The position numbers and the translations under genes were made by a program. 54,356 nucleotides of DNA from a virus (lineage: Duplodnaviria > Caudoviricetes). Location of the stretch: the IMG/VR virus record IMGVR_UViG_3300031949_000049, positions 1 to 54,356 of that record; one strand, given 5' to 3'. Below, one piece after another: positions 1,473 to 54,177 of this stretch. Every line of letters begins with the position of its first letter. Positions within the stretch are counted from its first letter, which is position 1. The notes under the pieces were generated by a model that searched no databases, was not told the DNA's origin, and worked only from the letters and a program-made list of their open reading frames with translations.

Positions 1473-2003
1473 GTGCATTACACTGGTTATGTTTATATTT
1501 GGTATGATACGAAAGCTAAATTCTTCTATGTCGGGGGACATAAAGGAAGAACTGGAGATTCGTACATTTGTTCTAGTAAGATATTGAAACACGCTTATAA
1601 ATTGAGACCTCATACTTTTAGATTCAAAGTCTTAGAATATGTTGTTGGCGATATTAGACATCTGAGAGAAGCCGAACAGCGTTGGCTTGATAAAATCAAC
1701 GATAATGAACTCTTCACCTCAGAAAATGTTAAGAACAAAACAACCAGATACTACAACGTAAAGAAACTTTCCACTGGAGGCAATGGTTCGGCCAATAAAG
1801 GAAATTCTAACATAGGTGGTCGAAATAAGGATCATCCAATGTCAGAAGAACAAAAGAAGAAGATTGCTCTCGCCTTGAGAGGAAGAAAACAGTCTCCTGA
1901 ACACATAAAGAATAGACTTTTAAGTCGCCTCAAAGTAGGCCCGTTCTGTTTCGAGGTGGAGCCCATACCCAATAAGACTAAGCGGCTAGCGCCATTGCCC
2001 TAA
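1473..2003 (+). CDS. Seg-like GIY-YIG homing endonuclease with NUMOD3-like tail
   Basis: GYVYIWYD...FYVGGHKG...YICSS, E..WL, YYN; HPMSEEQKKKI..ALRGRKQSPEHI; AT-rich; GTG start just after CATAAATA late-promoter-like box (1461-1468). Confidence 0.85.
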   Translation: MHYTGYVYIWYDTKAKFFYVGGHKGRTGDSYICSSKILKHAYKLRPHTFRFKVLEYVVGDIRHLREAEQRWLDKINDNELFTSENVKNKTTRYYNVKKLSTGGNGSANKGNSNIGGRNKDHPMSEEQKKKIALALRGRKQSPEHIKNRLLSRLKVGPFCFEVEPIPNKTKRLAPLP

Positions 2004-2252
2004 ACGGAGCGTTATCATTCGCTGCGTTTGTAATTGTGACCTGTGACGGAGTCATCCGATAGACCTCCACCCTCTCTTCACACCGAGTCGAATCCTGTTT
2101 CGCCCCCATCAAGAACACACCGAGTTCATCCTTTTTATCATCGCAGTTGCAACTGCGTGGACACAACGAGTGGTCACGGTGTATTCATGGTGGAGGCGTC
2201 GGGTACTGCCCCCGAGTCCTACGGCGATCGCTGAGGGCTTCAACGACCTACA
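1935..2252 (-). ncRNA. ssrA: circularly permuted (two-piece) tmRNA gene, alphaproteobacterial type
   Basis: Acceptor piece ...GACUCGGGGGCAGUACCCGACGCCUCCACCA (ends 2188) precedes coding piece GGGGGCGAAACAGGAUUCGAC (starts 2107); G3-U70 Ala identity; tag (A)ANDNAPFRAMALAA-stop ends 1978; outer ends approximate. Confidence 0.93.
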
Positions 2253-2254
2253 TA

Positions 2255-2287
2255 CTATCTATATACAAAATAAAAGTTCGCGTCAAC
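2255..2287 (-). promoter_or_regulatory. promoter for tmRNA
   Basis: TTGACG-17nt-TATAGA(TA), also resembles the T4 late box. Confidence 0.55.
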
Positions 2288-2318
2288 TACACCCGGGGAG
2301 GCATCCGTATATATACCA

Positions 2319-51987: not shown

Positions 51988-52515
51988 CTATTCACGATGT
52001 GAAACAGCGGGATGACTTTGCAGCCATCGATTGATCCTGGCCACTTGTGTGTGGCTAAGTTTTAGTTCTGAAGAAAGTTTGGTCACCCAACCTCTCTTCT
52101 TTTCTATCAGGAACGAATTCCTGTATTCTTCATAAGTACGTCTGGGGTGTTCAGCCCTCTTGATGTTGGCACGAACTTGATGTTCCCTCATCATAACGTG
52201 CCATTTTTTCTTCCCATACTTAGCAACACCTTTTGCATAAATTGATGTTGCAGTTCCATTGTCGACTTGATCTTGATAGTTGTCCTTCGCAGTTCCCCAA
52301 TAGACATGCTTTACATTCGAACACTTTCCGTTATGGCACGCATGGCATATCAAAATCTTCTTACCATTTGGGATCGTGGTCTTAAGTTCAAAGGCCAATA
52401 ACCCTCTTGTATCGCTACTGCATCCCCCAATCTCAATGCAAGGTTCATCTAATCTTAGGTGTGTTCGTCGATCATTCCTACTCTTCTTAATGTATTCACA
52501 TATATCATCGTGCAT
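51988..52515 (-). CDS. HNH (His-Cys box-like) homing endonuclease within tRNA array
   Basis: ICHACHNGKCSNVKHVYWGT.KDN..D; AT-rich. Confidence 0.85.
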   Translation of the reverse strand: MHDDICEYIKKSRNDRRTHLRLDEPCIEIGGCSSDTRGLLAFELKTTIPNGKKILICHACHNGKCSNVKHVYWGTAKDNYQDQVDNGTATSIYAKGVAKYGKKKWHVMMREHQVRANIKRAEHPRRTYEEYRNSFLIEKKRGWVTKLSSELKLSHTQVARINRWLQSHPAVSHRE

Positions 52516-53128: not shown

Positions 53129-53405
53129 CTTACTTCCTACCAGGGGTTGCGTATATTTCTCAATACTATATATACGCCGTGGTGTCAACAGCTCATTTCG
53201 GAATAATTTCGTCAGAGTCACACCACCAGGCGATCTGGTCCGTCATGTACATTACTCCTGCCTCACGGGTAGCGAAGAGGTCGATCCAGGCCTTGGTCTG
53301 TTCTGACAAAGGGGCAGTGAGGATCACTGAAGTCCTCGTTCGTGATGCAGCACGTCATGTTCTTAGGAGGTAGTTCCTCCGACGTCTTCTTCCAGTTCAC
53401 CATGA

Positions 53406-53777
53406 TCAAGCCGCCTTCTTCAAGGCTTCAGGATCCTTCCAGACCTCAACCGCCTTCTTGATGTTGGCGGCGTCCTTGTTGACCCCGTACTTCACGATGA
53501 GCTGGTTGATTCGAACCCAGTCTGGCTGGGGTCGCCTGCCCTTCTTTCCCGTGCCCGGAGGCTCGATCGAGGCATAGGACTTCCCCTTGAGGAAACCATA
53601 CGCTATGAGCGCGGATCTGGACTCGGATCGGACGTCTTGGGTTCGATGATTTCGAAGACCCCAGAAGATCTCTCGGCAGGTCTCACCCCGCCGTTTCTTG
53701 AACTTCTGCTCTTCTTTACGGATGATCTGAGCCTCTACCGCGAGGCTCTTGATCTTGATCTTGAGATATGCTAACAT
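53406..53777 (-). CDS. conserved basic hypothetical protein, C-terminal AA
   Basis: LK.KIKSLA.EA.IIR...HR...VR.E.R...IAYGFL.G..Y..IE; AAGGA RBS. Confidence 0.8.
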   Translation of the reverse strand: MLAYLKIKIKSLAVEAQIIRKEEQKFKKRRGETCREIFWGLRNHRTQDVRSESRSALIAYGFLKGKSYASIEPPGTGKKGRRPQPDWVRINQLIVKYGVNKDAANIKKAVEVWKDPEALKKAA

Positions 53778-53780
53778 GTT

Positions 53781-53890
53781 ACTGTTCCTTTGGTTGATTG
53801 ATTTGAGAAAAGAGATTCGTCAGATCAATCGACCGGGGGACCAGTCTTACAGTCTAGGTATTCAGGTGAACTTCATAGTCTCGGTCCTTC
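53781..53890 (-). promoter_or_regulatory. structured translational leader with mini-ORF ATG AAG TTC ACC TGA ATA CCT AGA CTG TAA
   Basis: GAAGGA RBS; long hairpin whose base ACUGGUCC/GGAACAGU covers the downstream RBS. Confidence 0.6.
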
Positions 53891-53916
53891 TAGTTACACC
53901 GTCTTGCTGACGGAAT

Positions 53917-53991
53917 TGGCGGCTACGGTGGGAATCGAACCCACGACCCAGAGATTGAAAGCTCCTGCTCTACCATTTGAGCTACGCGGCC
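53917..53991 (-). tRNA. aberrant tRNA (anticodon UUC, or UCA in an 8-nt loop)
   Basis: canonical D and T arms, GCCA end; anticodon arm GGAG-CUUUCAAU-CUCU; TTGACA-17-TATAGA promoter at ~54003-54031. Confidence 0.7.
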
Positions 53992-54177
53992 ATCTTATTA
54001 TATCTATACACCATCTCGCTGAACATGTCAAACTATCCCAAATGCGTTCATCACAAAGAAATATCATTAACAAATAAATTTTTTTTAATGGAACCATATC
54101 GCCAACTAGTGTATTATACCTCCGTAGGTGACACTCGTTTCCTACGCGTTAAGTATGTAAAATAGGAGTGTGTTACT

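Follow-up and report, generated by a model that had tools for sequence, protein, structure and literature searches.

The right-hand end of the IMG/VR virus record IMGVR_UViG_3300031949_000049 (Duplodnaviria; Caudoviricetes), analyzed here at its full length of 54,356 base pairs (bp) and called the window, carries on its minus strand a compact cassette in which a suppressor-type transfer RNA (tRNA) gene is followed by a short leader open reading frame (mini-ORF) ending in UGA, by a hairpin that pairs the ribosome-binding site (RBS) of the next gene, and by that gene, which encodes a protein of 123 amino acids (aa). Comparison with related loci suggests that the cassette is a translational switch gated by nonsense suppression, a reading that we consider probable, and that the protein is probably made only while the phage's own suppressor tRNA works. 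The arrangement recurs in relatives more often than chance would produce it. The reading draws on the sequence parts themselves, on the stability of the hairpin, on co-variation between the leader stop codon and the anticodon of the tRNA, on variants in which the stop codon lies in frame within the gene, and on an enrichment for pairing of the gene's Shine-Dalgarno sequence (SD). The parts of the cassette are as follows (nt, nucleotides).

53917-53991, minus strand: tRNA gene of suppressor type, CCA encoded, anticodon stem of 4 bp, 8-nt anticodon loop CUUUCAAU
53899-53913, minus strand: small hairpin CCGUC-AGCAA-GACGG directly 3' of the tRNA, from the minimum-energy fold of 53916-53760
53885-53890, minus strand: SD of the mini-ORF, GAAGGA, read from the sequence (AGGA ahead of the ATG in the automatic mini-ORF listing)
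53862-53876, minus strand: leader mini-ORF ATG AAG TTC ACC TGA (MKFT-stop), 8 nt after GAAGGA
53864-53862, minus strand: the UGA proposed to be sensed, in the context UGA-A-U
53847-53861, minus strand: read-through extension ATA CCT AGA CTG and then the frame-0 TAA (53849-53847), 4 nt before the hairpin
53827-53825, minus strand: +1-frame stop TGA, met on reading after UGAA, within the 5' arm of the hairpin
53781-53845, minus strand: long, imperfect RBS-sequestering hairpin, its anti-SD strand being the 5' strand ACUGGUCC (53845-53838)
53785-53790, minus strand: SD of the 123-aa gene, AAGGAA, 7 nt before the ATG at 53777
53406-53777, minus strand: gene of the 123-aa protein, stop codon TGA, from an uncharacterized large phage family
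53409-53420, minus strand: codons of the C-terminal KKAA, an ssrA-like -AA end, read from the sequence

In the proposed mechanism the leader RNA would pair the SD of the gene with a C-rich anti-SD strand lying shortly 3' of the leader stop codon. Termination at that codon (UGA here) would leave the ribosome too far 5' to disturb the helix, and the gene would stay silent; once the phage tRNA has been synthesized, matured and charged, it would decode the leader stop and the ribosome would continue, in the window either for 5 codons to the UAA before the hairpin or, after a UGAA step, for 11 codons into its 5' arm, unwinding the anti-SD strand and freeing the RBS. In many relatives of amber type the frame opened by read-through extends to the main ATG and overlaps it as ATGA or TGATG, as in classical translational coupling, and in others the stop codon lies inside the gene. 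Synthesis of the protein would thereby be tied to suppressor-tRNA activity, with the tRNA presumably charged and suppressing. A ribosome at a stop codon covers about 12 nt downstream and the helix of the window starts 20 nt after the U of the UGA; the helix would therefore not be reached from there. A ribosome at the UAA would plausibly cover the ACUGGUCC strand, which is the geometry put forward in an initial annotation of this DNA, and judged from that geometry its passage would open the RBS. The annotation had read the mini-ORF and its RBS (53876-53847) exactly as they stand in the sequence, and its proposal that the UGA is sensed and that passage beyond it opens the hairpin fits the comparative data; the input it assumed, activity of release factor 2 (RF2) or general decoding of UGA, is probably wrong or incomplete, and the upstream gene had escaped it as a suppressor-type tRNA.

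The principal evidence is that the leader stop codon and the anticodon of the accompanying tRNA change together. The 170 nt upstream of homologs of the 123-aa gene show a common pattern, in which a tRNA or tRNA-like gene is followed by an SD-preceded mini-ORF (1-13 codons; 1-14 over all related loci, with its end 59-164 nt from the main ATG), by a C-rich box such as GGACCUCC or GGUCCGCC 3' of the mini-ORF stop, and, 40-70 nt further on, by a GGAG-type SD and ATG. The discovery set comprised 35 rows, namely the window, 28 IMG/VR loci and 6 phage records (OLIVR1, DLP_5, DLP_3, NCTB, BUCT-ZZ01 and DSS3_MAL1). As the idea had been formed on these rows, a separate hold-out set was fetched afterward with a different peptide pattern, which returned 71 loci, 50 of them previously unseen. 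A tRNA was assigned either by its ARAGORN anticodon or by an anticodon-loop word followed by a T-loop. Among the discovery rows, 15 combine a CUA tRNA with a TAG leader, 11 a UCA tRNA with a TGA leader, two a 6-nt loop CUUCAA ('Glu|SeC') with a TGA leader and one a 'Stop|Ile' loop GUUAUA with a TAG leader; four have a leader and no tRNA in the flank, and two are without leader data. The 50 hold-out loci divide into 11 with CUA and TAG, 18 with UCA and TGA (one of them with a 6-nt loop), five in which a tRNA is present and the leader was not resolved by the rules (L055, L074, L085, L092, L108), 11 with a leader and no tRNA within 1.5 kb, and five with neither. Discordant pairs number zero in either set. 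In the 85 loci taken together, which come from diverse phages, the leader stop could be read and a suppressor-type tRNA lay in the flank at 58, and all 58 match (26 CUA-TAG, 31 UCA-TGA, one UUA?-TAG, none discordant); by Fisher's exact test p is 8e-17 with all rows included and 2.9e-8 when only the hold-out loci are counted. The stop codon that ends the main gene itself shows no association with leader type. Conservation of the leader among homologs, on which the initial annotation had staked its reading, holds for the SD-preceded mini-ORF, which recurs, but not for the identity of its stop codon, which may be TAG instead of UGA.

These pairs bear directly on the reading favored by that annotation, in which the leader would sense RF2, or near-cognate read-through of UGA, with no dedicated tRNA, the neighbor being an ordinary tRNA-Glu. 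Such a leader would suit the window taken alone, where the canonical anticodon register is UUC according to both ARAGORN and Infernal and where TGA and TAA lie 20 and 4 nt before the hairpin, and UGA is the leakiest of the stop codons. However, RF2 does not act on TAG, and sensing of RF2 therefore cannot explain a leader stop that is TAG beside a CUA tRNA and TGA beside a UCA tRNA in 57 of 57 pairs, to which the single UUA?-TAG locus is added. Tandem or in-frame TAG variants beside CUA tRNAs also speak against it, as does the 8-nt loop with a conserved G-C closing pair in 26 loci, and we regard this explanation as unlikely.

Variants with the stop codon inside the gene point the same way as the pairs. 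In seven hold-out loci (L044, L066, L071, L088, L090, L102, L104) there is no separate mini-ORF; instead the main ORF starts ATG-(1-3 codons)-TAG, so that TAG is codon 3-5, and the frame continues into the LKIKIK motif of the family (for example M-T-stop-I-P-H-L-K-I-K). An ARAGORN CUA tRNA lies in the flank of six of the seven. No protein would therefore be made at these loci without amber suppression, which provides independent support for suppression-dependent synthesis in the loci of leader type. The L015 leader shares the reading frame of the gene, with two TGA codons in between. Amber leaders accompanied by ordinary tRNAs with 7-nt loops usually have frame 0 open through to the main ATG, and the frame-0 end may overlap the main start, as ATGA in L007, L008, L009 and L019 and as TGATG in L016; these overlaps are translational coupling. 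Opal leaders are built differently: in 23 of 38 a second frame-0 stop follows within 5 codons of the TGA (2/38 in frame +1 and 4/38 in frame +2), and it sits just before the anti-SD strand. A separate configuration is seen at L076 (~1410-1420), where the TAG of the upstream gene abuts, in frame, the ATG of an N-terminally extended homolog, and amber read-through would fuse the two.

The in-frame TAG codons could also be viewed as ordinary recoding, in which the tRNA would serve genome-wide reassignment of a stop codon in the style of crAss-like or Lak phages and the 123-aa gene would be just one recoded gene among others. Suppressor tRNAs are indeed described from stop-codon-recoded phages in the portions consulted of two reports (10.1101/2021.08.26.457843, PMC10607447), and seven relatives do carry a TAG within the gene. 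In the window, however, 89 ORFs tile 83% of the strand under genetic code 11, with TGA, the commonest stop, ending 45 of the 89, and when the window was scanned for ORFs interrupted by one TGA, the resulting list was noisy and contained no clear recoded gene. The phage is thus not recoded by these measures, and its tRNA therefore needs another role. Phage Summit has an amber suppressor tRNA, for which the excerpted text of its report (PMC9022506) gives no identifiable target, finds no amber-interrupted genes and states that the purpose remains unknown. Genome-wide recoding is for these reasons a highly improbable account of the cassette.

The tRNA itself sits 40 nt 5' of the mini-ORF and is named tRNA-Glu(ttc) by ARAGORN; the Rfam tRNA model (RF00005) matches 53920-53991 with 53.9 bits against a threshold of 29. 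In the Infernal alignment the anticodon stem is GGAG/CUCU with position 31 deleted and U39 unpaired, which leaves the 8-nt loop CUUUCAAU. This loop contains UCA, complementary to UGA, and also UUCA, complementary to UGAA; in the leader the stop codon is followed by A (UGA-A). Loops of the window type with a G-C closing pair occur at 26 loci, always accompanied by a TGA leader, and the stem pairs below the 8-nt loop are maintained with covariation (closing G-C in 25/26, second pair in 26/26, third in 23/26). TGA leaders also accompany tRNAs whose loop is an ordinary CUUCAAA of 7 nt or whose anticodon ARAGORN reads as 'tca' (L015, L017, L039, L040, L063, L099). Across the family ARAGORN names the partner tRNAs 'Pyl(cta)', 'SeC(tca)' or '???' with the four-base anticodons ttca, ccta or tcta. 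They usually lie directly upstream of the homolog, and sometimes directly downstream or up to 1.6 kb away; DSS3_MAL1 and BUCT-ZZ01 have a CUA tRNA just upstream, and DLP_5 and DLP_3 have the leader ATG AAG TAG and a CUA tRNA just downstream of the gene. The cassette is likewise present in OLIVR1, where the tRNA (L030, 2324-2400) is annotated as Val and read by ARAGORN as four-base 'ccta', and the tRNA of DLP_3 (L035, 2798-2871) is annotated as Glu although its loop, CUCUAAA, has a CUA anticodon. Phage records probably under-count suppressor tRNAs like these. Two further observations concern tRNA relationships only: Xanthomonas phage XacN1 (L110, 1113-1271) has two tandem CUA suppressor tRNAs that are 79% identical to the window tRNA over 71 nt, followed by ORF088, which does not resemble the 123-aa family; and the scaffold of the window tRNA is 85% identical to the tRNA-Lys(UUU) of phage Xoo-sp13.

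At eight loci (L003, L004, L009, L011, L012, L013, L021, L023) the place of the tRNA, ~100-190 nt upstream of the homolog, is taken by tRNA-like RNAs of 70-73 nt that have a 7-bp acceptor stem, an encoded CCA and a normal T arm (T-loop GGTTCRA), together with a long, bulged anticodon arm bearing an 8-nt loop and a D arm that is reduced or missing. They are missed by ARAGORN and fall below the Rfam tRNA threshold (e.g. L003, L004, L009, L013, L021, L023); that of L012 scores 24 bits for tRNA, and that of L021 gives a weak match to mascRNA.

A codon-like triplet followed by a conserved A, next to a tRNA with the complementary loop, might alternatively act like a T-box riboswitch, in which UGA-A or UAG-A would serve as a specifier that pairs with the anticodon loop without translation and remodels the anti-SD hairpin. 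T-box specifier loops do have a purine after the specifier, and translational T-boxes that hide an SD exist; moreover, in L011 and L055 a TGAAT lies 13 nt past the tRNA with no SD-ATG before it. In nearly all leaders, however, an in-frame SD and start codon precede the stop, and at the seven loci with TAG inside the conserved ORF the codon must be translated through. The only Rfam matches above threshold in the window are tRNA and tmRNA (transfer-messenger RNA), no T-box (RF00230) is found at E<=1 in 53700-54100, and no Stem I-like element lies upstream of the codon. A T-box-like mechanism is accordingly quite unlikely.

The output side of the proposed switch is the pairing of the gene's SD. 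Folding of 53850-53778 (73 nt) gives a single imperfect hairpin of -23.8 kcal/mol paired from 53845 to 53781, compared with a mean of -11.8 kcal/mol for shuffled sequences (z -4.52; 0/200 shuffles as good). Its outer strands ACUGGUCC (53845-53838) and GGAACAGU (53788-53781) pair with each other, and the GGA of AAGGAA is covered by UCC, which bears out the initial annotation in its claim that the base of the hairpin hides the AAGGA RBS of the 123-aa gene. The competing pairing that it had also proposed, between GGACC at the RBS of the mini-ORF and GGUCC of the hairpin, can form (-10.1 kcal/mol) but is no better than in shuffles (z +0.49; 135/200 as good). Across the family, pairing between a CUCC-type box and the SD is predicted in most related leaders. 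The probability that the SD is paired was calculated for 55 non-duplicate leaders with a recognizable SD (6 more leaders have none), the upstream part being shuffled for comparison: the mean is 0.85 vs 0.67 in shuffles, 44 of the 55 leaders exceed their own shuffled mean, and in 21 of the 55 the observed pairing is reached by at most 3 of 60 shuffles.

It could still be supposed that the mini-ORF arose by chance and that the hairpin serves a tRNA operon in processing or stability: the region lies inside a tRNA array, short ORFs are frequent, and the SD of the window is paired with no higher probability than in shuffles. Against such a coincidence, the same series of SD, mini-ORF, matched stop codon, anti-SD box and SD recurs family-wide, and the context of the stop codon is nearly invariant, the base after the leader TGA (+4) being A in 38/38 and the next (+5) T in 35/38. 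We consider coincidence very unlikely. In TAG leaders +5 is U in 27/35, so that a NUN codon almost always follows the sensed stop, and an ACN (Thr) codon often precedes it; this may be a context that favors suppression.

Several points nevertheless weigh against a suppression-gated switch. The whole case is comparative, and charging of the tRNA, suppression and opening of the RBS are all things that we infer. TGA ends half of the phage's ORFs, and an efficient opal suppressor would extend phage proteins as well, which argues for weak or context-limited suppressor action. In its canonical register the window tRNA reads UUC, with UCA one base further (ARAGORN, Infernal); many of the partner RNAs are irregular, and several were found by the motif rule alone (anticodon-loop word plus T-loop). 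The pairing probability of the window's own SD is 0.66 vs 0.69 in shuffled leaders and thus not higher. No tRNA lies within 1.5 kb at 16 of the hold-out loci, of which 11 have a readable leader and five do not, and the two loci with TGAAT just past the tRNA end lack an SD-ATG. The rows are not independent, since they include the near-duplicates L020/22, L024/25, L061/62, L094/95, L102/104 and L107/108, and the leader stops of 7 discovery and 8 hold-out loci were set by hand after the idea existed. At L097 the automatic rule chose a 1-2-codon TTG/GTG...TAG ORF beside a UCA-type tRNA, although an ATG-started ORF ending in TGAAT sits nearer the box. L074 is possibly discordant, for its leader has TGA and then TAG and its only motif match is CUA-type and 1 kb away; L033 has an adjacent CUA tRNA and a second, UCA-type motif match 1.5 kb downstream. 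The protein tree counts partly in favor of the switch, since TAG and TGA leader types are interspersed on it (9 changes on the best tree vs ~10 for shuffled labels) and the independent contrasts agree in direction in 8/8, but only one of these eight pairs is on well-supported branches, the tree being poorly resolved.

Within the suppression-gated switch, the 8-nt loops raise the question of whether the leader stop is read as a triplet or as a quadruplet. In the part consulted of a study of laboratory-selected UAGN decoders (PMC4764823), an 8-nt loop is needed, the top hits have an extra U at position 33.5 (apparent UCUA), position 38 is U or C, and a G31-C39 pair is common to all. The evolved tRNAs share their features (A37, U/C38, G31-C39, 8-nt loop) with the natural loops CUUCUAAU and CUUCUAAC, which a G-C pair closes, and the window loop CUUUCAAU is the opal analog; the laboratory versions were engineered from tRNA-Pyl. 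An 8-nt anticodon loop closed by a stable pair is found in the window and at the 26 motif loci. The +4 base is A, able to pair with the extra U, at all loci with 8-nt loops (22/22 UCA and 7/7 CUA), compared with 7/19 for 7-nt CUA loops. Frame 0 reaches the anti-SD box at 14/17 loci with 7-nt loops vs 8/22 opal loci with 8- or 6-nt loops, and at the same 22 loci frame +1 reaches the box in 19. In a quadruplet version of the mechanism, leaky triplet read-through of UGA would be caught by the frame-0 stop just before the hairpin, and only a four-base step by the phage tRNA would bring the ribosome, now in frame +1, past the anti-SD strand. On the other side, frame +2 is open in 18/22 as well, all six 7-nt UCA loci have TGA-A-T too, U is found at +5 in all classes while +6 varies as does a third codon position in frame 0, and the amber loci with 8-nt loops lack the frame-0 closure. 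That 8-nt-loop tRNAs are natural decoders of UGAA and UAGA quadruplets is therefore possible but doubtful. Equally tentative is a joint reading in which CU-UUCA-AU and CU-UCUA-AU/C tRNAs would decode quadruplets, the leader would be a frameshift sensor, tRNA, leader and short-lived -AA protein would form a mobile, self-contained module, and the protein would feed back on termination, suppression or rescue; such feedback would explain the occasional linkage to phage tmRNA genes.

The 123-aa protein belongs to a large family. A word-indexed search returned 16 related proteins, 11 phage records contain relatives (homologs are carried by Summit, DLP_5 and DLP_3, among others), and an exhaustive profile search returned 3828 clusters at E<=1e-3. 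A single-protein search of IMG/VR gave no close relatives of the window, and a metagenome scan for them gave 3 loci, two of which are apparently repeats of contigs already in the set. Sequence profiles from Pfam, PHROG, NCBIfam and PDB gave no match for the window protein or for 39 family members. The AlphaFold2 model obtained with a 39-sequence alignment (predicted local distance difference test, pLDDT, 93.6) has a long antiparallel helical hairpin (residues 2-27 and 32-63) and a small helical C-terminal part; Foldseek found no match in PDB at E<=1e-3, a wide search with VIA-align found generic helical hairpins only (best Z 7.3), and ESM Atlas yielded no usable match. The label 'putative structural protein' attached to the OLIVR homolog finds no support in the main text of the corresponding paper, which has no mass spectrometry and no mention of gp84.

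The window protein finishes in KKAA, with a free C-terminal Ala-Ala, and the resemblance to a degron pointed out in the initial annotation turns out to be a conserved feature: 54 of 161 members end in Ala-Ala and 78 of 161 in Ala, with an overall Ala content of 10.7% and an expectation of ~1% for AA. A free C-terminal Ala-Ala is the signal of the ssrA-type ClpXP tag (ClpX C-motif 1), and the retention of -AA even on long, variable tails fits a free-end signal of this type. The -AA end would then act as a degron that keeps the protein short-lived, and its level would track suppressor activity. Nothing shows the protein to be the translation-related factor that the annotation made of it, and it has no known domain; the role that we favor, by inference from its link to a suppressor tRNA, lies in termination, suppression or the rescue of ribosomes, where it might for instance regulate by feedback. 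Read-through of the TGA of the 123-aa gene would give KKAA-X-S-W before a second TGA and would mask the -AA end.

The window record is estimated to be 31% complete, nearly all its genes are on the minus strand, and it has 16 tRNA genes and one alpha-type tmRNA; the latter (1887-2290, minus strand) is permuted, in two pieces, with the tag AANDNAPFRAMALAA, and lies 51 kb from the 123-aa gene. The tRNA, leader and 123-aa gene may form a single transcript, and the small hairpin at 53899-53913 may be a processing element or a 5'-end element of the downstream mRNA. A strict sigma-70 promoter scan found no match upstream of the tRNA; by eye, TTGACA-17 nt-TATAGA is seen just 5' of it (54031-54003, minus strand), and an element resembling TTGACA...TATAT is seen near position 53190. 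A small ORF (53263-53403, minus strand) has its ATG 2 nt past the TGA of the 123-aa gene (TGA TC ATG). Inside the tRNA array an ORF at 51988-52515 (minus strand) matches PHROG HNH endonucleases (5e-9) as an HNH or His-Me endonuclease and is likely a homing endonuclease. In 20 related loci, no conserved protein-coding neighbor was found among the 86 ORFs scanned of 122, and only the tRNA, sometimes with a tmRNA, travels with the gene; a tmRNA gene follows the homolog directly in L018 and L026 and after ~0.5 kb in L019. At L002 (3433-4971, plus strand) the homolog is directly followed by a gene for a protein with TROVE (Ro60-like) and VWA domains, a type linked to RNA quality control.

Suppressor tRNAs occur in many phages that use the standard code, where their purpose is an acknowledged puzzle, and the cassette offers a concrete target for them, the leader of the neighboring gene. 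If correct, it would be the first natural gene switched on by a dedicated nonsense suppressor. The analysis also delimits a large protein family, of thousands of clusters, for which the searched domain libraries have no entry, draws attention to unusual tRNAs (8-nt loops, reduced D arms) that are overlooked or misnamed by standard tRNA finders, and makes the question of natural quadruplet decoding testable in the culturable phages OLIVR1, DLP5, DLP3, Summit and DSS3_MAL1. In the literature searched, neither the 123-aa family nor the pairing of a suppressor tRNA with a matched leader is described. The logic combines known elements, namely leader ORFs, SD sequestration, coupling and nonsense suppression; to our knowledge the input, a dedicated phage tRNA read by its neighbor's leader, is undescribed.

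Among known systems, autoregulation of prfB, the RF2 gene, is similar in that an early stop codon senses termination against decoding and so sets synthesis of the downstream protein. In prfB the sensor of RF2 lies within the RF2 gene itself and works by a +1 slip on CUU-U that has an internal SD, whereas in the cassette the stop codon is mostly in a separate mini-ORF, may be TAG or TGA, is matched by a phage tRNA and acts together with an SD-sequestering hairpin; a CUU-UGA slip site of the prfB type is absent from the window mini-ORF, in which the codon before UGA is ACC. The ermC and cat leaders and coupled ATGA genes likewise have a short upstream ORF and a hairpin over the downstream SD that is opened by a ribosome, and two features of leader-ORF control, an SD-preceded short ORF (in the window and its relatives) and a stable helix that pairs the SD, are present here. 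In ermC and cat the signal is a stalled ribosome or a drug, however, and in the cassette it would be a stop codon read by a dedicated neighboring suppressor tRNA. Recoded phages (crAss-like, Lak) share a phage tRNA with a CUA or UCA anticodon but have many in-frame stops in late genes, whereas the only matched target found here is the leader of one small gene. T-box riboswitches also match a leader element to the anticodon of one particular tRNA and so control the downstream gene, in some cases by SD sequestration; the cassette has no Stem I, T-box sequence or Rfam match, and its triplet lies in a translated mini-ORF or gene. Another parallel is man-made: in synthetic amber-suppression gates, as described in the excerpted text of PMC6412442, an early stop codon likewise makes expression dependent on a suppressor tRNA, and the cassette would be their natural and widespread counterpart.

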